64,000 bases of DNA from an uncultured Verrucomicrobiota bacterium (GTDB lineage Bacteria; Verrucomicrobiota; Kiritimatiellia; PWTM01). Shown here piece by piece: positions 1,077 to 42,775 of the stretch (within the stretch, counting starts at the first letter, position 1; each line of letters begins with the position of its first letter). The notes under the pieces are model-generated. The model ran no database searches. It saw nothing but the letters and a program-made list of their open reading frames with translations, and was not told the origin of the DNA. The DNA lies in NCBI GenBank assembly GCA_964402695.1, contig CAYODK010000004.1, positions 7,676 through 71,675 of the forward strand, read 5' to 3'. The position numbers were made by a program, and so were the translations under genes.

Positions 1077-1123
1077 TTCCAAGACTTGGAAGCCCGCTCC
1101 GAAGCGGCTTCCAAGGGTGGGAA
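1077..1123. repeat. Doublet of 15-bp palindromes TTCCAA-N3-TTGGAA with a 17-bp spacer (copy 1)
   Basis: TTCCAAGACTTGGAA at 1077-1091 and TTCCAAGGGTGGGAA at 1109-1123. Confidence 0.8.
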
Positions 1124-10367: not shown

Positions 10368-11648
10368 TCACGCCCCGCGGACCTCCTCGCGGTAGTCCGA
10401 GGGCCAGCGGCCGGCGTGGTGGTGAAAGGCGCGGCTGAAGGACGCCGCCGTGGCGTATCCACAGGCGCGGGCAATGTCGGCGATACGGTGCGCGCGATCG
10501 GCGAGCAGGGAACGCGCGGTCTGCATCCGCACGCGGACCAGTTCCTCGCGGACGGTGCGGCCGAGTGCGCGTTCGAAGCGGCGGTCGAGCGTGCGGCGCG
10601 AGACGCCGAGCCCCTGCGCGATCTGCTCCGAGCCGACCAGGTCGCCTGCCTGCTCGCGGACCCTCTGGACGGCCGACCGCACAAGGTCGTCATCGACGGC
10701 GACCGTGTCGGTCGAACCGCGCGCGGCGATGCCGACGGGCTCGATCCTCACGTGCGGCGTCGCGATGCGGCGTCCCGCCATCGCGGCGTCGAGCATCCGT
10801 GCGGCCTCGAAGCCGATGCGCGGGGTGGGGAGCCGCACGCTGGAGAGTGTCGGCCAGCTCACCTCGCACATCAGTTCATCGTCGCCGATCCCGAGCACGG
10901 CGACCTGCTGCGGCACCGCGATCCTGGCCCAGCGGCACGCGGTGAGCACGCGTTCCCCGAGCTTGTCGTCGAAGACCAGGAGTCCGACGGGTTTCGGGAG
11001 CCCCCGCAGCCAGCGCATCATCGGGCCGAGGCCCGACTCGCCCTCGGCGACGGGGTCGGCGAAGGCCGGTAGAACTGCGCCCGTGACGCCGTCCGGCCGC
11101 CGTCGGACGACACGGAGGTCGTCCCTCCAGCCCCCGGCGGCCGGGGTCGGTGGCGGGCCGGGCTCCGTCCCGGCCGTTCCGCGCGGCGGACGTGACGGAG
11201 CCAGAGCCGCCAGCGCGGCCGCGAAGCCGGCGCGGCGCTCCTCCGAGGCGGTGCGCCCCGCGACGCCGCAGTAGCCGAAGTGGCGCAGGCCCGCCTGGAC
11301 CAGATGCTCCGCGGCGACCCGGGCGACGGCGGCGTTGTCGATGCTGACGGTCAGGCCGATCGGCTGCTCGCCGCGCGCGGTGTCGACCAGCGGGATCCCC
11401 AGACTCCGGGCGGCGGCGACCAGCCACCGGTCGGCGATGTAGGCCAGGATGCCGTCCGGGCTCAATCGCGCGACCTCGCCCGCGGCGCCCTGTCCGCCCC
11501 GCCGGACCAGCATCATCCGCCAGCCGTGGCGGCGGACGTACTGCGCGACGCCGTGCAGGCGGTTGCGCCCGGCGCCGTCGCGGGTGTCGATGCATACGGC
11601 GACCGATCGGGTACGCGGGACGGCTGGTTTCACGCGGCGATGATGCAT
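10368..11648 (-). CDS. XylR-type transcriptional regulator (periplasmic-binding-protein-like domain plus AraC HTH) carrying an internal REP-derived insertion
   Basis: LPKPVGLLVFDD, VPQQVAVLGIGDD, TLSSV, ARGSTD and C-terminal IADIARACGYATAASFSRAF; start is 11648 (ATG) or 11633 (GTG). Confidence 0.9.
   Translation of the reverse strand: MHHRRVKPAVPRTRSVAVCIDTRDGAGRNRLHGVAQYVRRHGWRMMLVRRGGQGAAGEVARLSPDGILAYIADRWLVAAARSLGIPLVDTARGEQPIGLTVSIDNAAVARVAAEHLVQAGLRHFGYCGVAGRTASEERRAGFAAALAALAPSRPPRGTAGTEPGPPPTPAAGGWRDDLRVVRRRPDGVTGAVLPAFADPVAEGESGLGPMMRWLRGLPKPVGLLVFDDKLGERVLTACRWARIAVPQQVAVLGIGDDELMCEVSWPTLSSVRLPTPRIGFEAARMLDAAMAGRRIATPHVRIEPVGIAARGSTDTVAVDDDLVRSAVQRVREQAGDLVGSEQIAQGLGVSRRTLDRRFERALGRTVREELVRVRMQTARSLLADRAHRIADIARACGYATAASFSRAFHHHAGRWPSDYREEVRGA
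11105..11175. repeat. Divergent REP doublet (TGGAGGG family) inside the XylR CDS
   Basis: GGACGACACGGAGGTCGTCCCTCCA (reverse copy, 11105-11129) and TGGCGGGCCGGGCTCCGTCCCGGCC (11151-11175), both with the loop CTCCGT. Confidence 0.75.
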
Positions 11649-11681
11649 GACCAAAACAGGTATGCCAATGACGAAACAAGG
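11648..11681. promoter_or_regulatory. Candidate AraC/XylR tandem operator in the divergent promoter
   Basis: TGACCAAAACAGG (11648-11660) and TGACGAAACAAGG (11669-11681) are direct repeats with a 21-bp period. Confidence 0.55.
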
Positions 11682-11740
11682 CAATTGCCCCGGGCGGCGG
11701 ACCGGCCTAGCCTGACGGGAAAACCGTGGGGGAGACGCCG

Positions 11741-12514
11741 ATGAGATTCGCCGGGAAGACCATCCTTGTCACCGGTGCGGGAAAGAACACCGGGTTGGGC
11801 ATCGCGGCAGGCTTCGCCGCGGCGGGCGCGACCGTCTTTGTCAACGACGCGACGCCGGAGGGGGCCGGCCGCGCGGCGGCGGCGCTGCGACGGAAGGGGT
11901 GGAAACGCGTGCACGCCGCCCCGGCGGACGTCGGCGACGCGAAGGCCGTGGAGGCGATGTTCCGGGCGATCCGGCGTCGCGCGAAGCGGCTGGACATCCT
12001 GGTCAACAACGCGGCGCACCTCGGGGTCGGGCCGGAATTCCTCGACACGGAACCGGCGTTCTTCGAATCCGTCGTGCGGGTGAACCTGCTCGGCACGTTC
12101 CAGGTCTCGCGGCTCGCGGCGCGATGGATGAAGGACACCGGCGGCGGGGCCATCGTGAACATCGGGTCGAACGTCTCCACCCGCGCGATCCACAAGCGCG
12201 CCGCCTACCTCGCCAGCAAGGGCGGGATCGACGCGCTGACCCTGGCGATGGCCGTCGATCTCGCGCCGCACGGCATCCGCGTCAACGAGGTGGCGCCGGG
12301 CTACATTCACAGCGACCGTTGGCTCACGCTGCCGGCGGAGCACGCGAAACGGCGGCGCGCGAACATCCCGCTCGGTCGCGAGGCGATGCCGGAGGATATT
12401 GCCGAGGCCGTGATGTTCCTCGCCTCCGACCGGGCCGGGAACGTGACCGGCTCGCGGCTGGTGGTCGACGGCGGCTGCACGGCCCAGCACATGCCGAAGG
12501 ACGTGGACGTGTGA
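11741..12514 (+). CDS. SDR family oxidoreductase (putative sugar dehydrogenase)
   Basis: TGAGKNTGLG, DILVNNA, YLASK, VNEVAPG and VVDGG motifs. Confidence 0.92.
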   Translation: MRFAGKTILVTGAGKNTGLGIAAGFAAAGATVFVNDATPEGAGRAAAALRRKGWKRVHAAPADVGDAKAVEAMFRAIRRRAKRLDILVNNAAHLGVGPEFLDTEPAFFESVVRVNLLGTFQVSRLAARWMKDTGGGAIVNIGSNVSTRAIHKRAAYLASKGGIDALTLAMAVDLAPHGIRVNEVAPGYIHSDRWLTLPAEHAKRRRANIPLGREAMPEDIAEAVMFLASDRAGNVTGSRLVVDGGCTAQHMPKDVDV

Positions 12515-13965
12515 GCGCGGACGCCCAGGACGACGCCCGGGTCTGCTGTAGCCGCGACGGGTCGTCGCGGCCGGTACGCGCCCCGGAGCCCGCATCGGCC
12601 GCGACCGCCGGTCGCGGCTACAGCGACACATCCACGGGTACGGTCTTCTGTAGCCGCGACGGGTCGTCGCGGCGGGCGGACGCCCCGGAGCCGACCCGTC
12701 CGGGCTACAAGTGGGAGCTGCTCGCGCTGCTCTTTTTCGCGTTCTTCTTCCACCAGGGCGATCGCGCGATCTACGGCGTCGTGCTGCCCGCGATCAAGAC
12801 GGACCTCGGCGTGTCGGACAGCCAGCTCGGCCTCGTCGGCAGCGTGCTCTTCGCGACGCTGGCGCTGATGATGCCGGTTGCCGGCTACGTCGGCGACATC
12901 TGGAACCGCAAGCGGATCATCGTCGGGAGCCTGCTGTTCTGGAGCCTGGCGACGATGCTGACGGGTTTCGCGGGCGGCGTGGGCGGACTGATCGCGTTCC
13001 GCAGCGTTGCGACGGCGGGCGGCGAGTCGTTCTACGCGCCCGCGGCGTACCCGCTGATCGCGGCGCACCACACGCGGACGCGGTCCATCGCGCTGTCCGT
13101 CCACCAGGCCTCGCTCTACATCGGCGTCATGGTCAGCGGGTTCATCGGCGGGTTCATCGCGGACCAGTGGGGCTGGCGGTCCGCCTTCTACGTCTTCGGC
13201 GGCGGGGGCATCGTGCTCGGCCTCGTGCTGGCGGTCCGCCTGCTCGACGCCCCGCCCCCGGCGCGCGCGGAGGGAGGCGGGACCGTCTCCCCGTTGCGGG
13301 CGCTCGGCGTGCTGTTCCGGTCGCCGTCGGCGCTGCTGCTGACGGCCGGCTTCACGGCGATCGTCTTCGTCAACAACGCCTACGTCGTGTGGGCGCCGGT
13401 GTTCCTGAAGGAGCGGTTCGACCTGTCGCTCGCGCAGGCCGGCGGCTACGCGATGTCGTGGCACCACGCGGCCGCTCTCGGGGGCATCCTGCTCGGCGGC
13501 TGGCTGTCGGACCGTCTCGCCGCGGCCCGGCCGGTCTTCCGGCTGCAGCTGATGTCGGGCGCGATGCTGCTCGGCGCGCCGGTGATCGTCCTGCTGGGGC
13601 GGGCGGACGCGATCGCCGCCGCGTGCGCGGCCATGGCGGGCTTCGGCTTCTTCCGCGGGCTCTATGAGGCCAACACCCACGCGGCGCTCTTCGAGGTCAT
13701 CGCGCCGAAGTTCCGCGCCTCGGCGGTCGGGATCATGACGATGCTCGCCTTCCTCGCCGGGTCGGTCTCGCCGTGGCTGCTCGGCCGCATGCGCGAGACC
13801 CACGCCGCCGGACAGGGCCTCGGTCTCGGCTTCTCCGCCCTCGGCGGGGCCTACGTGATCGGCGGCATCGCGGTCCTGTGCGCGGTGCTGTTCACGTTCC
13901 GGAGGGACCGGGTCGAAGAAGAAGGAGAAGTGGAAAACTCCGAACTCCAAGGAAGTGGGAAGTGA
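12511..13965 (+). CDS. MFS transporter (sugar-acid/ACS-like) with a REP-derived N-terminal extension
   Basis: GTG start overlaps the SDR stop (GTGA); QGDRAIYGVVLPAIKTDLG, GDIWNRKR, GESFYAPA and GGWLSDR motifs; about 12 hydrophobic segments. Confidence 0.9.
   Translation: MSADAQDDARVCCSRDGSSRPVRAPEPASAATAGRGYSDTSTGTVFCSRDGSSRRADAPEPTRPGYKWELLALLFFAFFFHQGDRAIYGVVLPAIKTDLGVSDSQLGLVGSVLFATLALMMPVAGYVGDIWNRKRIIVGSLLFWSLATMLTGFAGGVGGLIAFRSVATAGGESFYAPAAYPLIAAHHTRTRSIALSVHQASLYIGVMVSGFIGGFIADQWGWRSAFYVFGGGGIVLGLVLAVRLLDAPPPARAEGGGTVSPLRALGVLFRSPSALLLTAGFTAIVFVNNAYVVWAPVFLKERFDLSLAQAGGYAMSWHHAAALGGILLGGWLSDRLAAARPVFRLQLMSGAMLLGAPVIVLLGRADAIAAACAAMAGFGFFRGLYEANTHAALFEVIAPKFRASAVGIMTMLAFLAGSVSPWLLGRMRETHAAGQGLGLGFSALGGAYVIGGIAVLCAVLFTFRRDRVEEEGEVENSELQGSGK
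12546..12700. repeat. Cluster of three GTAG-type REPs inside the 5' part of the MFS CDS
   Basis: GTAGCCGCGACGGGTCGTCGCGG at 12548-12570 and 12650-12672 (identical); inverted copy CCGCGACCGCCGGTCGCGGCTAC at 12599-12621. Confidence 0.85.
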
Positions 13966-14206: not shown

Positions 14207-15118
14207 ATGACGATCACCTGGCTTGGACAATCCGGCTACTTGCTCGAAGGCGCGGGGGTGCGGATCGCGATCGATCCCTACCTGAGCGACGCCGTGGAGC
14301 GGGCGCAGGGGCTGAAGCGCCTCGTCGCGCCGCCGCTGACCGTCGCACAGCTGGCGCCGGACGTTCTGCTGATCACGCACGACCATCTCGACCACTTCGA
14401 TCCGGACACGGTGCCTGCGGTCATGAGATCGTTCCCGGCCTGCCGCCTCGCCGGCCCGGCCAGCGTCAGGGCGCACGGCGCGCGGATCGGTCTGGCGGAC
14501 GCGCGGCTCGTGGCGCTCGATGCCGGCGGCTCTGCGTGCCTCGGCGGCGTTGAAGTCACCGCCACGCCCGCGCGCCACAGCGATCCCGCCGCGGTCGGCC
14601 TGCTGGTCCGCGCCGACGGCGTCCTCCTCTGGTTCAGCGGCGACACCCTCTACGGTCCGGACCTGGCCGGCGATGTGCTCCGTCTTGCGGGCCGGGCGCC
14701 GGATGCGGCGTTCGTCTGCATGAACGGGCGCCTCGGCAACATGGGGGTCGACGACGCCGTCCGCCTCCTCGCGGAGATGCGGCCGGCCCTCGCCGTGCCG
14801 TCGCATTACGGCATGTTCGCCGAGAACACCGCGGCCCCCGCGCCATTCGCCGCCGCGTGCGCGCGCGCCGGGCTGCGGACCCTGGTTCTGGACCCCGGCA
14901 TGCCCGTCGCCTGCTTCTTGGAGGGCCGAGCTACGCGAGGCCGCGACCCGGTTCCACCGCAGCCGTGGACCGGGCCCGAGTCGGGGCAGACAGGAGTGTC
15001 TGCCCCACAACCGATGCATCGGGTTGCGGGAGGGACGGACTTCGGCGAGCTCAGTCGAGCCGCGGCCCCGCCGCCCGCTGGAGTCGATTCCGCAAGGACG
15101 AAAGGGACGCCCGCATGA
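14207..15118 (+). CDS. MBL-fold metallo-hydrolase (UlaG-like, putative lactonase) with a repeat-derived C-terminal tail
   Basis: ITWLGQSG, IDPYLSD, THDHLDHFD, WFSGDT and PSHYGMF motifs; stop overlaps the next ATG (ATGA). Confidence 0.85.
   Translation: MTITWLGQSGYLLEGAGVRIAIDPYLSDAVERAQGLKRLVAPPLTVAQLAPDVLLITHDHLDHFDPDTVPAVMRSFPACRLAGPASVRAHGARIGLADARLVALDAGGSACLGGVEVTATPARHSDPAAVGLLVRADGVLLWFSGDTLYGPDLAGDVLRLAGRAPDAAFVCMNGRLGNMGVDDAVRLLAEMRPALAVPSHYGMFAENTAAPAPFAAACARAGLRTLVLDPGMPVACFLEGRATRGRDPVPPQPWTGPESGQTGVSAPQPMHRVAGGTDFGELSRAAAPPPAGVDSARTKGTPA
14920..15060. repeat. REP cluster within the 3' end of the MBL hydrolase ORF
   Basis: GGAGGGCCGAGCTACGCGAGGCCG at 14920-14943 (identical to 4672-4695) and GGGGCAGACAGGAGTGTCTGCCCCAC at 14983-15008. 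Confidence 0.85.
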
Positions 15119-16320: not shown

Positions 16321-16392
16321 GGGCAGGCAGGAGTGCCTGCCTCACGTCCAAGCCTTGGAAGGTTGTCCGTGATGGGTTTCCAACCCTTGGAA
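16321..16392. repeat. Family A REP followed by the TTCCAA-N3-TTGGAA doublet (copy 2)
   Basis: GGGCAGGCAGGAGTGCCTGCCTCAC at 16321-16345; GTCCAAGCCTTGGAA at 16346-16360; 17-bp spacer; TTCCAACCCTTGGAA at 16378-16392. Confidence 0.8.
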
Positions 16393-16406: not shown

Positions 16407-17870
16407 ATGAAGATCTGGATGGCGATGGCGGTGGCCGCCGGGCTGGCCTGCGCGGCGGGCGCGCAGGTGATTGACGACTCCGACACGCGGGTGCAGACCA
16501 CGCTTGACCCGGGGCTCAAGCGGATCGGGACGCTGCGGCCGAAGGGCGTGCACGAGATCGGCACGTCGCGCTGGACGCTCGGCTGCGAGACAATGGACCG
16601 CGAATACACCGACTACGACGCCTTCAAGGAGTACCTGCCCGCGCTCGGGATCAAGCGGATCCGCCTTCAGGGGGGGTGGGCGCGCACCGAAAAGGACCCC
16701 GGCATCTACGACTTCGCGTGGCTCGACCACATCATCGACGACGCGCGCTCGCGCGGCCTCGAGATCTGGCTGGAGACCAGCTACGGCAACCCGGCCTATC
16801 CGGGCGGCGGCGGGCGGACGCTCTCCGGCGGCTTCCCGACCTCGGCGGAGGGGCTCGCGGCGTGGGACAAGTGGGTCGAGCTGATGGCGACGCGCTACAA
16901 GGGGAAGGTCCGCGACTGGTCCGTCTGGAACGAGCCGGAGTTGCGCAACGCCAACAAGCCGGAGCTGATCTTCGACTTCAACATCCGCACCGCCGAGATC
17001 ATCCGGCGGATCATCCCCGACGCCCGCATCGCGTCGCTCTCCATCTGCGCGCCGAAGAAGGAGATCATCGAGCCGTTCGTCCGGACGCTCGTCGAGCGGA
17101 ACAAGCAGGACCTCTTCACGTGGATCGTCTACCATCATTACGTGAAGAACCCGGACGAGAAGTACGAGGCGGTCGTCGAGGCGCGGGAGTTCGTGCGGAA
17201 GCACATCCCGAACCTGAAGCTGTGGCAGGGCGAGAGCGGCACGCAGTCGGAATGGTGCGGCGCCGGGGCGCTGAGCAAGTACCCGTGGACGGAGCTGACG
17301 CAGGCCAAGTGGAACACCCGCCGCATGCTGGGCGACATCGGCCACGGATCGGACTCGTCGGTCTTCTCCGCCGCCGACCTCGACTACCGCACGACCTCCT
17401 TCCACAATGGCCTCGTCCGCTACGGCCTCATCAAGACCGCCGGCGCGGCGCACGGCTACCGCGTGCTCAAGGTCAAGACGGCCTACTACGCGGTGCAGAA
17501 CGTCGTGTCGGTCTTCAACGACTCGCTCGAGTGGATCCCGGACTTCGCGTGCGACGTGAAGTGCGCGAAGCCGCTGGCGGTCTTCGGCCACCGCGACGTC
17601 GCCAGCGGCCGCCCGGTGGTCGTGTTCTGGGACAAGAGCGGCGTGCCGTCGAACTCGAACGAGACGACGGCTGCGACGCTGACGGTGGCGAAGGGGACGT
17701 TCGCCGAGCCGGTGTGGGTCGACGTGATCACCGGAGGCGTGCACGAGATCCCGGCCGACCGGATCGAGCGCGACGGCGGCGGGGTGGTCTTCAGGGACAT
17801 CCCGGTCTACGATGCGCCGGCGTTCATCGCGGACAAGGCCCTGCTCTCGATCCTGCCGGCGAACCACTGA
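16407..17870 (+). CDS. Secreted clan GH-A glycoside hydrolase (GH39-like)
   Basis: Signal peptide; RIRLQGGW, YDFAWLD, WNEPE (acid/base) and LWQGESG (nucleophile). Confidence 0.75.
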   Translation: MKIWMAMAVAAGLACAAGAQVIDDSDTRVQTTLDPGLKRIGTLRPKGVHEIGTSRWTLGCETMDREYTDYDAFKEYLPALGIKRIRLQGGWARTEKDPGIYDFAWLDHIIDDARSRGLEIWLETSYGNPAYPGGGGRTLSGGFPTSAEGLAAWDKWVELMATRYKGKVRDWSVWNEPELRNANKPELIFDFNIRTAEIIRRIIPDARIASLSICAPKKEIIEPFVRTLVERNKQDLFTWIVYHHYVKNPDEKYEAVVEAREFVRKHIPNLKLWQGESGTQSEWCGAGALSKYPWTELTQAKWNTRRMLGDIGHGSDSSVFSAADLDYRTTSFHNGLVRYGLIKTAGAAHGYRVLKVKTAYYAVQNVVSVFNDSLEWIPDFACDVKCAKPLAVFGHRDVASGRPVVVFWDKSGVPSNSNETTAATLTVAKGTFAEPVWVDVITGGVHEIPADRIERDGGGVVFRDIPVYDAPAFIADKALLSILPANH

Positions 17871-33070: not shown

Positions 33071-37827
<4,757 letters not shown>

Positions 37828-37831
37828 AGCC

Positions 37832-40516
37832 ATGAGACGATTCTTGTCCGCACATCTCATCGCAACGCTGTCCGCGGGGCTGATCGCCGCCGCGATGGCG
37901 GGGCACTGGCGGTTCGACGGCGACTTCGCGGGCGGCGCCGCGCCCGCGGGAACGGCCGGGGTGTTCGAGAAGGGGACACGGCCGGAGTTCGACGCCGACA
38001 CGCCGGGGACGTCCATCTGGGACGGATCGACGTTCACCTCCGCGAACCCGACGAACCTGTCCTCGCTGCGGTTCGTCAACGAGAGCCCCGACGGCGCGGG
38101 CAGCCCGGTCGGCGGCGAGGTCGTGGTCGCCGGCGCCGATGCACGGCTCAAGACGCGGGGCCTGACCGTCGAGGCCTTCGTGAAGATGGACCGGCAGTCG
38201 CCGCGCCACGCGCTGATCGCCAGCAAGCGCCGCAACGGGCAGACCGGCGCGAGCTGGTCGCTCTCGATCGATCCGACGGGGTGCCTGCGCGTTCGATTCG
38301 ATACGCAGCCGGGCGCCGACTCGAAGAGCGGCGACGGGTTCAATCAGACGATGGGATCAAGCGGTTCCCTCGCGGACGGCGAATGGCACCATGTGGCGCT
38401 GACTCTCGATCCCGCCACCCTCGGGGCAAGCCTGTATGTCGATTACGTGCGCTGCGGCGGCGGGATCGTGAAGGGATCGCTGGTCTACGACGACGGTCCG
38501 CTCGTGATCGGGCGCGGACTCGACGGCCGGCTCGACGAGGTGCGCCTGGGCGGCGAGCCGCTGCACCCCGAGCAGTTCCTGCGCACGGTACGGTTCTACT
38601 CCGACATGAAGCCGTGCGCCCCGGCGGTCGCGCTGCTCGACACGACGCCGACCCGCGTGCAGAGCGCGCTGACGATCGACTGGCCCCGGATCGGCACCCT
38701 GATCCCCAGGCGTGTCGGCGAGATCGGGACGTCGATGTGGTCGCTCGGATGCGAGACGCTCGACCGCGACCTCGCCGATTGGGACGCCTACAAGGCCTAC
38801 CTCGAGCCGCTCGGCATCCGCCGCATCCGGCTGCAGGGAGGCTGGAACCGCACCGAGAAGCAGAAGGGCGTCTACGACTTCGCATGGCTCGACCGCATCG
38901 TCGACGACGCGCACGCGCGCGGCCTGCAGGTGTGCCTGGAGACGTCCTACAACAACCGCCTCTACGAGCCCGGCGGCGCGACGGGCCCCGGCGGCCGGCT
39001 GCCGGAAGGGGAGGAGACGCTCGCGGCGCGGGACCGGTGGGTCGAGGCGATGGCCCGCCGCTACTCCGCGCGCGGCGTCCGCGAATGGATGATGTACAAC
39101 GAGCCGAACCTCAACAAGAGCAACACGCTCGAGAAGATCGTCGCGAACAACATCCGCACGGCGGAGATCATCCGGCGGGTGGATCCGGAGGCGAGGATCG
39201 GCGCCTTCGTGCTCGCCGGGCTGGCCGTCGAGTCCATCGAGAAGATGCTGGAGATGATCAAGGCGCAGGGGAAGCTCGACCTGTTCCACTGGGCGATCTA
39301 CCACGGCTACAGCGGCAACCCCGACCGGCTCAACGAGCGCATGGCGGAATTCAACGCGATGCTCGGGCGCGTCGCTCCGAAGATCCGGCCGTGGCAGGGC
39401 GAGGCCGGCTGCGCGTCGGAGGAGGTGCAGTACGCACTCTCCGGCATCGACTGGACCGAGTACTCCCATGCGAAGTGGAACGCGCGGCGGATGCTGTGCG
39501 ATCTCGGGCACGGGATCGAGTCGTCGGTTTTCACGATCTCCGACCTGGGCTATCACAAGGACTTCATCTCGCGGTACGGGCTGTTGAAGACCAACCCGGA
39601 CAATTCGATCGTCAAGGTGAAGACCGCCTACTACGTCGTGCAGAACGTCGTCTCGATCTTCAATGACACCCTCGATCGCGCGCCGGACTGCGCCGTGACG
39701 GTCACGGGGACGGGGAAGGCTCTGACGGTCTTCGCGTTCCGCGACCGGGCGAGCGGGTTCGGCGTGGTGACGCTGTGGGACGGCACGGAGATCCCCTCCA
39801 ACGGCTCCGATGTCGAGCGGGTGAAGGTCGCGGTCCGCGGCGGGACCTTCAACCAGCCGGTGTGGGTGGATCTCATCACGGGTCAGGCCCACGGGATCCC
39901 GGCGGAGAAGATGACCACCGCCGGCGGAACCGTCACGTTCACGGATGTGCCGGTCTACGACGGCCCCGCGGCGATCGTCGACCGCAGCCTGCTGTCGCTG
40001 GTGCCGGCGCGGGCGAGGAAGGCCTCCGCGCCGGTGCCGGCCGCTCCGTCCGCGCGCAAGCCGGTGGCCGCCGCTTCGCCGCCGATGGACCGGCACCTGC
40101 TGCCCGGGACGCAGCAGCCGGCGCCGGCGGTGCTGGTGTGCGCGGGGGAGGGCGAGGACGTCGGCGACCTCGCGAAGTGGCTGAACGCGCAGGACGTCCA
40201 TGCCTTCGTTGCGCGCATCGACGGGGCGTCCGCGGTCGATGTCGCCGCCGCGATGCGGGAGATCCGCAGCCATGCGGCCGAGTGGCAGGTGAGGGCCGGG
40301 TCCGTCGGCGTGCTGGCGACCGGCAGCCGCAGCGCGGAGGTCGTGAAGGGGGCGATGGGCGGCGCGGACTTCGCAATGCTGCTGGATGCCGGCGACGCGG
40401 GTGTGGCGACGGCGCTGCCGGAGGCGAAGCGCGGGGCCGTGTTCACGGGTCCGCGGGAGGGGTTCGAGGCCACGCTCGGCGCGTGGCTGGAGCGGTTCAA
40501 GGGGACGGTGTTCTGA
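37832..40516 (+). CDS. Secreted LamG + GH39-like glycoside hydrolase + degenerate alpha/beta-hydrolase fusion
   Basis: LTVEAFVK...DGEWHHVALT...LDEVR (LamG); YNEPN and WQGEAG (GH-A); tail PAPAVLVCAG...AKWLN...MREIRSHAAEW. Confidence 0.75.
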   Translation: MRRFLSAHLIATLSAGLIAAAMAGHWRFDGDFAGGAAPAGTAGVFEKGTRPEFDADTPGTSIWDGSTFTSANPTNLSSLRFVNESPDGAGSPVGGEVVVAGADARLKTRGLTVEAFVKMDRQSPRHALIASKRRNGQTGASWSLSIDPTGCLRVRFDTQPGADSKSGDGFNQTMGSSGSLADGEWHHVALTLDPATLGASLYVDYVRCGGGIVKGSLVYDDGPLVIGRGLDGRLDEVRLGGEPLHPEQFLRTVRFYSDMKPCAPAVALLDTTPTRVQSALTIDWPRIGTLIPRRVGEIGTSMWSLGCETLDRDLADWDAYKAYLEPLGIRRIRLQGGWNRTEKQKGVYDFAWLDRIVDDAHARGLQVCLETSYNNRLYEPGGATGPGGRLPEGEETLAARDRWVEAMARRYSARGVREWMMYNEPNLNKSNTLEKIVANNIRTAEIIRRVDPEARIGAFVLAGLAVESIEKMLEMIKAQGKLDLFHWAIYHGYSGNPDRLNERMAEFNAMLGRVAPKIRPWQGEAGCASEEVQYALSGIDWTEYSHAKWNARRMLCDLGHGIESSVFTISDLGYHKDFISRYGLLKTNPDNSIVKVKTAYYVVQNVVSIFNDTLDRAPDCAVTVTGTGKALTVFAFRDRASGFGVVTLWDGTEIPSNGSDVERVKVAVRGGTFNQPVWVDLITGQAHGIPAEKMTTAGGTVTFTDVPVYDGPAAIVDRSLLSLVPARARKASAPVPAAPSARKPVAAASPPMDRHLLPGTQQPAPAVLVCAGEGEDVGDLAKWLNAQDVHAFVARIDGASAVDVAAAMREIRSHAAEWQVRAGSVGVLATGSRSAEVVKGAMGGADFAMLLDAGDAGVATALPEAKRGAVFTGPREGFEATLGAWLERFKGTVF

Positions 40517-40531
40517 TCCGGAGACGATACC

Positions 40532-42775
40532 ATGAGACGCAATCGACTTCGCATGCTTCCGAGGGTTGGAACTCTGGCTCTGCTGGTTGTCCAAGCCTTG
40601 GACGCGCCGGCGGCGGCGGATGGGGCGCTGCGGCTGCGGGGAGGGCGGGGCGAGATGACGGTCGACGGGCGGGGCATCCGTCTGTCGACGTCCGTTGCCG
40701 GATGCCCGGCGGTCGAGGGGCACGACGGTCCGCACTGGGCGGTGCTCGTCCAGCGCGACGTCCCGCCGCCGGTGCCCGGCGAACCGGTCGTGCTGACCGA
40801 TGCGGGGCAGGCCGTGATGCGCACGGCGGAGGACGGCGTGATCCGCCTGTCGTGCGACGCGCTGACGGACGGGAAGCGGACGTGGAAGATCGGCGTCGTG
40901 TTCGTCATCCGTACCGCGGGCGACGGATTCGAGATCGCCGGCGAGGTCCGCAACCACGAGCCGGGCTGGGTCGTGTGCGGCATCACCGGGCCGGTGATCG
41001 GCGGGATCCGTGCCGACCTCGCGACGCAGCCCGCGCTGCTGCCCGAGGGCTTTGGCCGGCGGATCGACCGCGCGCCGGACGCGGCGAAGCCCGCGCCGTG
41101 GAAGCCGTGGGGGCGCCAGTTCGAGATCGAGGCCGACTTCCCGGGGCGCCGCGGCACGATGTCGTGGTGCGCGTTCGCGGGGGCGGCGGGCGGCCTCTAC
41201 CTCGCGTCGCACGATGCGTCGCACGGCGCGAAAACGATCTGCCTCCGCCACGATCCGGCCACGAAGGCGTTCGGCTTCGCGATCAAGCACCGCATGTTTG
41301 TTGCGGCCGGCGGGCGGTGGACGATGCCGCCGACCGTCGTCGCGCCCTACGAGGGAACGTGGCACGCGGCCGCGCGGCGCTACCGCGCGTGGGCCGACAC
41401 GGTGGCGAAGCCGATGGAGCCTCCGGCGTGGGCCGCCGATGCGTCCGGGTGGCTGTTGGCGATCCTGAAGCAGCAGAACGGCGAGGTGATGTGGAACTAC
41501 GCCTCGCTCGGGGCGCTCTGCGACATCGCCGACGCGCGCGGGCTCGACATCCTCGGCCTCTTCGGCTGGGCGCACGGCGGGCACGACCACCTCTATCCCG
41601 AGTACCGGCCCGACCCGCTCATGGGCGGCGAGGCGGCGCTCCGCGCGGGGCTCGCCGAGGCGCGGCGGCGGGGCAAGCGGACCATCCTCTACGCGAACGG
41701 CCAGCTCCAGGAGATTGGCACGGAGTTCTGGGAAAGGCGGGGACGGGCGCTGGCGGTGACCGGCCGCGATGGACAACCGGTGGTGCAGACCTACCACAAG
41801 TACCGCACGACGCCGCCGTTCCGGTTCGGCCTGGGCTGCCTGCGGACGCCGGAATGGTACGACCTCATGCTCGGCCTCGCGATCCAGGCCAACGAGCTCG
41901 GCGCGGACGGCATCCTCTACGACCAGCTCGGCATCTTCGAGCCGATGCCGTGCTACGCGACGGGGCACGGCCACCCGGTTCCGGCGATGGTCTACGCGGA
42001 GGACCGCGTCCGATTCCTGCGCCGCATCGCGGAGCACATGCGCCGGGTGAACCCGGAGTTCATCGTGATGACCGAGGGGCTGCACGACACGGTCCTCGAC
42101 TCGACCGCGATGTTCCACGGCTGCACGCTCGGCACGTTCGAAGTCACCGGGGACGACGTCCTCGGCTGGATCGGCCGCAAGGGCGCCTCGGCCGTCTTCC
42201 CCGAGATGTTCCGCGCCACCTATCCCGAGGTCGCGAGCACGGTCCGCATGCCGACGCCGATGATGGACCGTGCGATGGCGAACTACACCTGCGCGTACGG
42301 CTTCCGCTTCGAGATCGAGTCGCGCTACGCGCCCGACGTCCGGTACCTGCGCGAGGGACGCGTGCCGGAGGCCGCCGACTACGGCGAGGTCATCAACAAG
42401 CCCAACCTCCCGCTGATGAAGTCCGTCCCGCCCGCGGACGCCACGCGGTACCTGCGGCAGGTGGTCGACTTCATGCGCGCCAACGCGGACCTCTTCTGGC
42501 GCGGTCGCCATGTCGACACCGAGGGCTTCGCGTTCCGGGGCGAGGGGCTCGTTGCCAAGGGCTTCGCCGCCGGCGACCGCCTCGGCGTGCTGGTGTGGAA
42601 CCCGGGTGCGAAGGAGGCGCCGTTCACGCTCGACGTGCCGTGCGCCGCGCTGGTGTCGGCGTCGGACCCGGAGCACGGCAAGGCCGATGCGTTCGCCGCG
42701 CTGCCGCCGCAGTCGGTGCGGCTGCTGGTGTGGCGGCGCACGGGGGATGCCGAAACGGGGGGAGGACGGCGATGA
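40532..42775 (+). CDS. DUF6259-domain putative glycoside hydrolase
   Basis: YEGTWHAAARRYRAW, LFGWAHGGHDHLYPEY, ILYANG, GILYDQLG and MTEG motifs. Confidence 0.7.
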   Translation: MRRNRLRMLPRVGTLALLVVQALDAPAAADGALRLRGGRGEMTVDGRGIRLSTSVAGCPAVEGHDGPHWAVLVQRDVPPPVPGEPVVLTDAGQAVMRTAEDGVIRLSCDALTDGKRTWKIGVVFVIRTAGDGFEIAGEVRNHEPGWVVCGITGPVIGGIRADLATQPALLPEGFGRRIDRAPDAAKPAPWKPWGRQFEIEADFPGRRGTMSWCAFAGAAGGLYLASHDASHGAKTICLRHDPATKAFGFAIKHRMFVAAGGRWTMPPTVVAPYEGTWHAAARRYRAWADTVAKPMEPPAWAADASGWLLAILKQQNGEVMWNYASLGALCDIADARGLDILGLFGWAHGGHDHLYPEYRPDPLMGGEAALRAGLAEARRRGKRTILYANGQLQEIGTEFWERRGRALAVTGRDGQPVVQTYHKYRTTPPFRFGLGCLRTPEWYDLMLGLAIQANELGADGILYDQLGIFEPMPCYATGHGHPVPAMVYAEDRVRFLRRIAEHMRRVNPEFIVMTEGLHDTVLDSTAMFHGCTLGTFEVTGDDVLGWIGRKGASAVFPEMFRATYPEVASTVRMPTPMMDRAMANYTCAYGFRFEIESRYAPDVRYLREGRVPEAADYGEVINKPNLPLMKSVPPADATRYLRQVVDFMRANADLFWRGRHVDTEGFAFRGEGLVAKGFAAGDRLGVLVWNPGAKEAPFTLDVPCAALVSASDPEHGKADAFAALPPQSVRLLVWRRTGDAETGGGRR
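40557..40603. repeat. TTCCAA-N3-TTGGAA doublet (copy 3), inside the signal-peptide codons
   Basis: TTCCGAGGGTTGGAA at 40557-40571; 17-bp spacer; GTCCAAGCCTTGGAC at 40589-40603. Confidence 0.7.

Follow-up and report, generated by a model that had tools for sequence, protein, structure and literature searches.

What kind of element is the palindrome TTCCAA-N3-TTGGAA (here called the box), which is seen three times as a doublet in one stretch of DNA from an uncultured bacterium of the class Kiritimatiellia (Verrucomicrobiota)? The stretch is 64,000 nucleotides long (contig CAYODK010000004.1, positions 7,676 to 71,675) and is called the window below. A first-pass annotation had read the doublets as tandem operators for a pair of dimers at genes for secreted glycan enzymes, or alternatively as a lineage-specific dispersed repeat. 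The doublets belong to a box family shared by Kiritimatiellia-type genomes. The boxes are dyad-symmetric, are phased with the DNA helix, lie between genes without preference for promoter-containing gaps, keep their arms while the spacers drift, and arose in genes without insertion. We regard it as an even call that they are double-stranded-DNA sites for a conserved dimeric putative protein, set in phased arrays with an architectural or very global role. The family is apparently undescribed; full-text searches of the literature, by motif and by Kiritimatiellia palindromes, turned up no account of it.

Box doublets in the window and in other genomes

The window, with a G+C content of 69.5%, was searched for TTCCAA-N3-TTGGAA with at most two mismatches, and the expectation was taken from dinucleotide shuffles. 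Six matches are found against 0.45 expected, and the maximum in any shuffle is 3. The exact sequence is seen twice, at 1077 and 16378, and never in the shuffles; the remaining four boxes each have one or two mismatches. The six boxes form three pairs, with starts exactly 32 bp apart (1077/1109, 16346/16378, and 40557/40589). This pairing is far beyond chance. The six matches are exactly the boxes of the first-pass annotation, whose positions and distances are reproduced, and its statement that the three 17-nt spacers are unrelated in sequence is confirmed by comparison. No extra in-phase box, even a degenerate one, flanks any of the three doublets. The features are as follows.

1077-1091: box 1a, TTCCAAGACTTGGAA, perfect dyad, inside the 613-nt gap from a gene end at 787 to the start of the PcRGLX-like gene at 1401
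1092-1108: spacer of doublet 1, GCCCGCTCCGAAGCGGC, 17 nt, not conserved
1109-1123: box 1b, TTCCAAGGGTGGGAA, one mismatch, starting 32 bp after box 1a, with 277 nt from the box end to the ATG at 1401
16346-16360: box 2a, GTCCAAGCCTTGGAA, one mismatch, starting 43 nt past the stop of the enolase-superfamily gene (16302)
16361-16377: spacer of doublet 2, GGTTGTCCGTGATGGGT, 17 nt, changed in relatives at 5/17 and 4/17 positions
16378-16392: box 2b, TTCCAACCCTTGGAA, perfect dyad, ending 14 nt before the ATG at 16407 of a GH39/GH42-like secreted enzyme
40557-40571: box 3a, TTCCGAGGGTTGGAA, one mismatch, starting 40 nt past the stop of the GH39-like/LamG gene (40516)
40572-40588: spacer of doublet 3, CTCTGGCTCTGCTGGTT, 17 nt
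40589-40603: box 3b, GTCCAAGCCTTGGAC, two mismatches forming the mirror-symmetric pair G1/C15, in the part that likely encodes a signal peptide (MRRNRLRMLPRVGTLALLVVQALDA)

Doublet 1 lies 290 nt downstream of the preceding stop codon. Between box 2b and the ATG at 16407 is GAGGGAA, which resembles a ribosome-binding site. Box 3a corresponds to codons 9-13 of a DUF6259 gene, provided that this gene starts at 40532, a start suggested by the length offset to a paralogue bearing a signal peptide. The G+C content at third codon positions is low around box 3b, as read from the sequence.

One representative genome per species in a 596-Gb collection was scanned with the pattern TCCRANNNTKGGA-N19-TCCRANNNTKGGA. 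At least 118 loci are found, and all of those listed come from Kiritimatiellia-type metagenome-assembled genomes (MAGs), representing 37 assemblies with G+C contents of 49-75%. Among the matches listed, the MAGs are labelled Kiritimatiellae or Kiritimatiellia, the older Lentisphaerae or Verrucomicrobia, or simply "uncultured". By our own calculation under uniform base composition, a few tens of matches would be expected by chance in the collection. As a control, 2.9 million viral contigs gave seven matches to the same pattern, of which two are plain tandem repeats and four or five resemble true doublets. Typical doublets are seen on the IMG/VR contigs L146, L148, L151, and L152, which are classed as viral and may be Kiritimatiellia prophages or host flanks.

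In 935 kb of collected sequence, there are 464 boxes with at most two mismatches, 324 of them perfect. They form 66 single boxes, 148 doublets, and 20, 8, and 2 arrays of three, four, and five boxes. The pattern preselects 32-bp pairs, and the density in the retrieved loci is therefore biased upward. The density is also uneven: about 3 doublets per 64 kb in the window, 2 doublets in 154 kb of loci picked by protein homology, and 147 boxes in 232 kb (one per 1.6 kb) in CAIVKH, the richest genome. Extrapolation from fragment densities gives tens to hundreds of arrays per genome. In some stretches of CAIVKH, nearly every gene boundary bears an array; in L014 (1003-7200), five successive same-strand gene boundaries each have one, so that single genes are bracketed.

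The weight matrix of the box is mirror-symmetric, with the consensus tTTCCAA-K-S-M-TTGGAAa. It describes a dyad of 15-17 bp with a single G/C at the centre, and the flanks revert to ordinary G+C-rich sequence within about 4 nt. Distances were recounted only for pairs unable to have triggered the scan, which makes the count free of ascertainment. First neighbours are 30 bp apart in 4 cases, 31 bp in 35, 32 bp in 30, and 33 bp in 13 (mean 31.63 bp). Second neighbours peak at 62-65 bp (mean 63.34 bp), and third neighbours at 93-97 bp (mean 94.88 bp). The array step is 3 × 10.54 bp, the helical repeat of B-DNA. Across related genomes, the spacers are 15-18 nt long. These lengths keep successive boxes on one helix face, and the 17 bp of the window is a local sample of that distribution. 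The spacer had been called invariant at 17 bp; this is true within the window but not across related genomes, where starts are 30-33 bp apart. The idea of tandem sites for dimers is strengthened, as a period of 31.6 bp corresponds to three turns, holds for second and third neighbours, and goes with dyad-symmetric boxes. Hundreds of copies with random spacing had been named as the mark of a plain repeat; the copies are many, but their spacing is not random.

The centre triplet differs by lineage. It is T-S-A in 135 of the 147 CAIVKH boxes, G-S-C in SCQF and CAISWQ, and variable where copies are few. In high-copy genomes, the symmetry takes in positions 7 and 9 around the single central base, which could not pair in a hairpin loop. 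Mirror-symmetric double substitutions (GTCCAA..TTGGAC and TTCCAG..CTGGAA) are seen in 10 of the 45 boxes with two mismatches. G1/C15 is found only in high-G+C assemblies, G6/C10 only in a few others, and the within-lineage expectation explains most of the excess. The half-site variants occur on both halves and are clustered by lineage, as is expected if box and protein co-evolve. Orienting the boxes by their central base reveals no flank asymmetry. The spacers of CAIVKH have a weak consensus, RTTTGCGCnnCCGnnTT (8.7 bits), the orientation of which is unrelated to gene direction. Spacers of different genomes are unrelated.

Position relative to genes, conservation, and origin

Genes in the related loci were called with our own codon log-odds caller, which reproduces the gene map of the window, and key cases were checked by Pfam. 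Of 178 multi-box arrays, 126 lie wholly between genes, 25 extend over a gene end, and 27 fall within a call. Only 12.7% of the DNA is non-coding (p = 4e-71), and arrays are about 30-fold enriched there. Among gaps between confidently called genes, those of 45 nt or more carry arrays as follows.

Tandem gaps: 74 of 187 with an array
Divergent gaps: 24 of 58 with an array
Convergent gaps: 20 of 42 with an array

The share is equal across the gap types (chi-square p = 0.63). In tandem gaps, arrays lie a median of 30 nt from the upstream stop versus 75 nt from the next start (p = 2e-4), and a quarter of the arrays are within 10 nt of the stop. Many convergent gaps contain little beyond the doublet. 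Five doublet-bearing convergent pairs were confirmed by Pfam, with domains reaching the C-termini.

ETF-QO and GlgC
isocitrate/isopropylmalate dehydrogenase and a PATR-repeat protein
Wzy-like ligase and MurJ
UxaE and an FAD oxidoreductase
GYF-domain protein and an SDR

The neighbours of 4-5-box arrays and 50 small genes beside doublets together represent about 80 unrelated Pfam families, for example QueF, FolE, ribosomal protein L13, SecG, shikimate kinase, MlaE, and riboflavin synthase. The unrelated neighbours and the equal gap types effectively rule out that the arrays serve a glycan regulon or act as promoter-specific operators of any kind. It had been pointed out that all three doublets of the window adjoin genes for secreted glycan enzymes. 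This is correct, but uninformative in a window where most genes encode glycan enzymes. DNA-binding families are represented among the neighbours by one gene each of MarR, IclR, TetR, and AsnC. The MarR-family gene of L074 (1705-2430) is a single case, in which one of the two 5-box arrays, the largest size, lies downstream of that gene and upstream of a DegT aminotransferase gene. A promoter reading, with TTGGAA-N17-TTCCAA as the -35 and -10 elements, was rejected on the grounds that the -10 match is poor, arrays are common in convergent gaps, and sigma-70-like sites are not in excess in the first 20 kb of the window.

Doublet 2 can be compared with its counterparts in relatives. In the 92%-identical relative L119, all 24 of the 24 arm positions are kept, while 5 of the 17 spacer positions and one centre base are changed; the 40 nt upstream of the doublet are unalignable, with a 28-nt indel. 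In a second relative, a soil metagenome contig, four spacer positions and one arm position are changed. Pooled, the changes amount to 1/48 in the arms versus 9/34 in the spacers (Fisher p = 0.0012), rates that point to purifying selection on the arms. The metagenome contig X5 has box 2a in the symmetric ..GGAC variant, which ends in C. A similar pattern is seen in L093 and L106, two MAGs with about 80% identity between the flanking proteins. Their 3-box array is kept and ends 14-15 nt before the downstream ATG, and their spacers are unrelated, with lengths of 16/17 versus 17/16.

The doublet is not tied to the gene. Among metagenome orthologues of the GH39-like gene G11, the doublet is kept only in the 92%-identical relative. 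Orthologues at 48-79% identity have no doublet and stand in other neighbourhoods, and several of them share a different upstream motif. Conservation of a regulon in relatives, which had been put forward as a check of the operator idea, is not seen here. The different motif is about 40 nt long (TTCGCAaAAt-aGAGGGT-cAGTTCGCATAAT-GAGATTGCG), lies about 60-110 nt upstream of the G11 orthologues in the metagenome contigs L122, L124, L125, L126, and L130, and is a candidate promoter or operator of GH39-like genes, unrelated to the TTCCAA boxes.

Doublets inside genes, among them conserved housekeeping genes, are translated in frame as FQxLE, SKxWK, or FPxLG peptides. The MnmE gene of L062 (389-1762) contains two doublets and a single box, and its product aligns end to end with MnmE in the PDB, without insertion. 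RecD-like orthologues share a doublet at the same codons (L088 2984-3030 and L117 1933-1979), and a ThiD-like gene has one without change of protein length (L080 2333-2379). Because the in-gene doublets leave protein length unchanged, the boxes were written by substitution and not by insertion of a mobile segment, at least in genes. Tandem duplication as the origin of the arrays was rejected, as neighbouring spacers resemble each other no more than spacers from elsewhere in the same genome do.

DNA site, dispersed repeat, or transcript signal

Whether the boxes act in DNA or in RNA was approached with 193 boxes in tandem gaps, oriented by transcription. Stem mismatches on the transcribed strand are G.U in 10 cases versus A.C in 15, and the central base is G in 95 boxes versus C in 93. 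There is no downstream T-run in these 193 boxes, and the flanks stay mirror-symmetric. Covariation of flank pairs beyond the box is weak at the first two pairs (z = 2.0 and 3.8) and absent further out. Doublets fold better than shuffles in ViennaRNA (z = -2.5 to -5.5). Since the spacers are less self-complementary than shuffles of the same genome (z = -3 to -4.1), the long hairpins of single doublets are considered a by-product of the palindromes. An intrinsic terminator was rejected as well: the stem has 33% G+C in a genome of 60-70% G+C, and no T-run asymmetry follows transcription. Intrinsic terminators in the first 20 kb of the window number 6 versus 7.3 in shuffles, that is, without excess. 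A 2-kb stretch of the window was searched against sequencing runs; 99% of its sampled words occur in one metagenome run, and no RNA run on record matches it. A metatranscriptome with a related MAG is available as contigs only and behaves like DNA. The symmetry and the phasing favour recognition of double-stranded DNA by a two-fold symmetric putative protein, the half-site preference of which would drift with lineage.

Under this reading, each box would bind one homodimer of a conserved DNA-binding protein. Boxes three turns apart would place the dimers on one helix face, where 2-5 of them per array might bind cooperatively. They would probably form a tetramer or a larger oligomer, and may bend or wrap the DNA. 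The spacer sequence would be free if it is not contacted, and its length would be set by the helix. The sites could be selected, or driven, wherever sequence can change, which includes all types of non-coding DNA and occasionally tolerant coding stretches. Sites in non-coding DNA of every kind suggest an architectural or very global role. This role might be nucleoid-associated, insulating, topological, or that of a boundary or roadblock, and would not be the control of a glycan-enzyme regulon. It can further be speculated that the protein polymerizes on arrays between genes and forms a bidirectional boundary (a roadblock terminator and insulator, or a topological barrier) that delimits transcription units. 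This extension is a long way from probable. It may describe a genome-wide, so far unrecognized protein-DNA boundary system of a lineage without an excess of canonical intrinsic terminators, where arrays evolve in place under selection, even in coding sequence.

Several observations weigh against a protein-bound site with a global role. The copy number is very uneven, and the homogeneous centre and weak spacer consensus of CAIVKH resemble the amplification of a repeat. Per non-coding nucleotide, all gap types are equally dense in arrays, as would also be expected of a tolerated selfish element. No DNA-binding family recurs beside the arrays, either among the neighbours of 4-5-box arrays or among the 50 small genes. 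The excess of mirror-symmetric double substitutions could mean selection for a hairpin or cruciform, and is mostly gone after control for lineage.

Among known systems, pairs of NrdR boxes and arrays of Lrp/AsnC sites are the closest in geometry, and repetitive extragenic palindromic (REP) sequences with bacterial interspersed mosaic elements (BIME) are the closest in distribution. NrdR binds two partially palindromic boxes of about 16 bp, with a free linker of 15-16 bp and a dependence on helix phase (PMC13584703, PMC12051234). The boxes of NrdR, bound by a tetramer, are 31-32 bp apart from centre to centre, the same geometry as in the present family, which also has the integral-turn spacing and the free linker. 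NrdR boxes differ in sequence, number a handful per genome, and lie only upstream of nrd operons, whereas the Kiritimatiellia arrays contain up to five boxes, occupy all gap types, are extrapolated to number tens to hundreds per genome, and are not confined to promoters of a coherent gene set. Dimers of the Lrp type are placed two or three helical turns apart on one helix face, and DNA wraps round their higher oligomers (PMC2995911). Lrp/AsnC sites resemble the present boxes as dyads of 13-15 bp, spaced by 2-3 turns, several per array, and bound cooperatively, and Lrp is a global, nucleoid-associated protein. Lrp-type boxes have an AT-rich centre and lie in promoter regions, unlike the Kiritimatiellia boxes with their G/C centre and lack of promoter specificity. 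The only link to an Lrp-family gene is one AsnC-family gene among 50 neighbours, which is not recurrent.

The REP/BIME elements of Enterobacteria and Pseudomonas are likewise short multicopy palindromes, almost only extragenic, and single, paired, or clustered. They are often just after stops and between convergent genes, in orientations unrelated to the genes, and vary in copy number. The present family agrees in being multicopy and mainly extragenic (126/178 arrays; in one MAG as many as 147 boxes within 232 kb). However, its boxes are not imperfect palindromes of 20-40 nt with a GTAG/CTAC head, but perfect, relatively AT-rich dyads of 15-17 bp. Linkers are fixed in length and free in sequence, not conserved, and hairpin covariation is not found. 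The core is shared over 49-75% GC and not within one species, and boxes can arise in genes without insertion. DNA uptake sequences (DUS) of Neisseria and uptake signal sequences (USS) of Pasteurellaceae are also abundant short motifs that arise by substitution, enter tolerant coding sequence, form dialects, and often stand as inverted pairs after genes. They occur about once per kb, are not dyads themselves, and are not in helically phased arrays. Rickettsia palindromic elements (RPE) share the palindromic repeats in frame within protein genes, but are insertions of 100-150 bp that lengthen the protein, while the L062 MnmE keeps its normal length. Arrays of clustered regularly interspaced short palindromic repeats (CRISPR) have repeats of at least about 23 bp and spacers of at least about 21 bp in long arrays at few loci per genome, with cas genes. 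A CRISPR array was rejected for the present boxes, with repeats of 15-17 bp, spacers of 15-18 bp, and 1-5 units in dispersed arrays; no cas genes are seen in the window.

The main rival is a selfish repeat of the REP/REPIN kind. A domesticated transposase, like the REP-associated tyrosine transposase (RAYT), would recognize the boxes as hairpins and spread them over tolerant DNA, most of it non-coding, where they would have no host function. This reading accounts for the uneven, high copy number (147 boxes in 232 kb of CAIVKH against 2 doublets in 154 kb picked regardless of the motif), for the uniform density over all intergenic classes, for the homogeneous centre triplet within a genome and the weak spacer consensus of CAIVKH, for the independence of array orientation from gene direction, and for the REP-like position nearer to upstream stops than to downstream starts. 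REP families are normally species-specific, and here one 12-nt core is common to assemblies that range from 49 to 75% GC. Spacers that are unrelated between genomes, and no more alike when adjacent, do not fit a copied unit, nor does the absence of long-hairpin potential or the origin of in-gene doublets without length change. Exact three-turn phasing is not a property of transposition. In the genome fragments at hand, no Y1 transposase (Y1_Tnp) is found among the 50 small array-flanking genes or in the window, and the window has a separate, canonical GTAG-headed REP cluster. Such a repeat is unlikely, yet it has to be taken seriously. The dispersed repeat of the first-pass annotation agrees with the distribution, and leaves the phasing, the common core, and the in-gene origin without insertion unexplained. 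Molecular drive could also have spread the boxes as a genome-marking sequence, which might signal DNA uptake or allow self-recognition in recombination or defence. In Neisseria, paired uptake sequences are likewise orientation-independent, intergenic-enriched palindromes, and the in-place origin by substitution, even in tolerant protein segments within genes, the lineage dialects, and the few viral or proviral contigs with typical doublets would suit such a mark. Still, doublets in many genomes are far sparser than known uptake sequences, at about one per 20-75 kb, and the need for phased pairs is unexplained, so that we hold this origin to be very doubtful.

An element acting in RNA, with transcript hairpins as bidirectional terminators, 3'-end stabilizers, or modulators of translation, is distinctly improbable. 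Its attraction lies in the closeness of arrays to upstream stops (median 30 nt, a quarter within 10 nt), in doublets that fill convergent gaps and leave no space for another terminator, in the lack of canonical terminator excess in the first 20 kb of the window (6 vs 7.3), in folds better than shuffles, and in some arrays 14-15 nt before a start codon, beside the ribosome-binding site. The boxes, however, show no sense-direction U-tract, flank asymmetry, or preference for G.U over A.C, the spacers avoid self-complementarity, and flank covariation is weak and soon absent. In high-copy genomes, the symmetry includes positions 7 and 9 around one base, unpairable in a hairpin loop. A DNA-helical spacing is meaningless for RNA, divergent gaps carry arrays as often as the others, and good folds follow trivially from palindromes. 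Least credible of all is a tandem operator through which a specific transcription factor would control secreted glycan-degrading enzymes. It was proposed from the three doublets beside glycan-enzyme genes and from a geometry that suits two dimers, and a regulator of the PBP+AraC type is encoded at 10368-11684. With most window genes being glycan enzymes, the association is expected by chance. Arrays elsewhere lie between convergent genes such as those for ETF-QO/GlgC, IDH, MurJ/Wzy, and SDR proteins, and beside those for QueF, ribosomal protein L13, SecG, and shikimate kinase. Convergent gaps, some between housekeeping genes, bear arrays as often as promoter-containing gaps, the neighbours fall into about 80 families, and the G11 orthologues at 48-79% identity have their own conserved upstream motif and no doublet.

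The combination of phasing, a common core across 37 assemblies of differing G+C, and origin without insertion is unusual. Should one conserved protein have its sites in the boxes, they would give a sequence handle on the organization of chromosomes and transcription units in a class of polysaccharide degraders that is poorly studied and for the most part uncultured. Being so simple, the motif could serve directly as bait for the protein, and the lineage dialects might be used as a natural covariation experiment for its recognition code. In annotation, the arrays should not be labelled operators of carbohydrate-active enzymes (CAZymes); they also mark gene boundaries and could help to correct start and stop calls. 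As an evolutionary case, a motif that retains its helical phasing as the spacers drift, and that can enter coding sequence with no indels, is out of the ordinary. It bears on how dispersed families of binding sites rise by selection or drive and not by transposition.

Genes and other repeats of the window

Nearly all genes of the window are on the + strand, and the majority encode glycan-active enzymes or enzymes of sugar-acid metabolism. Pfam assigns PcRGLX-like, GH2 mannosidase, GH39/42-like, GDSL esterase, GH13, GH65/95-like, DUF6259 (two genes), GH106, GH115, and sulfatase proteins. Further genes encode an enolase-superfamily dehydratase, an SDR, an MFS transporter, and the PBP+AraC regulator. 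The gene for this regulator, which combines a periplasmic-binding (PBP) domain with an AraC helix-turn-helix, lies at 10368-11684 on the - strand, divergent from a + strand cluster that begins at 11726 (SDR, MFS transporter, metallo-beta-lactamase-fold protein, and enolase-superfamily dehydratase). Regulator and cluster together look like a sugar-acid utilization operon with its own regulator. No TTCCAA box is present in the divergent promoter region. No Rfam family matches at the gathering threshold across the whole window.

Three other palindromic sequences were noticed. The GTAG-headed palindrome GTAGCCGCGACGGGTCGTCGCGGC has three copies, about 50 nt apart and alternating in orientation, in the gap upstream of the MFS transporter gene.

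12548-12571, + strand: GTAG-headed palindrome
12598-12621, - strand: GTAG-headed palindrome
12650-12673, + strand: GTAG-headed palindrome

This cluster (12548-12673) is canonical REP/BIME-like and separate from the TTCCAA boxes. Its presence implies that the start at 12511 of the long open reading frame for the transporter is probably too far upstream.

A hairpin with a GGAG loop, GGCAGGCA-GGAG-TGCCTGCC followed by yCAC, also has three copies, each 70-130 nt upstream of a gene start in sense orientation.

1329-1348, + strand: GGAG-loop hairpin
14985-15004, + strand: GGAG-loop hairpin, with a compensatory change from G-C to A-T
16322-16341, + strand: GGAG-loop hairpin, part of a stretch of 28 nt inserted in comparison with L119 (92% identical)

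This small hairpin, whose loop is Shine-Dalgarno-like, may be a mobile or a regulatory element. The G+C-rich hairpin CCACCGGG-ACAAG-CCCGGTGG at 1232-1252 lies in the same long gap as doublet 1, and a similar sequence is seen once in L011.

The GH39/42-like enzyme (16407-17870) has a paralogue in the C-terminal part of the LamG-domain enzyme (37799-40516). Their genes match at 16521-17548 versus 38687-39693, with 72-80% nucleotide identity over several hundred bases. Doublet 2 is located just before the first paralogue, and doublet 3 is located 40 nt after the second.

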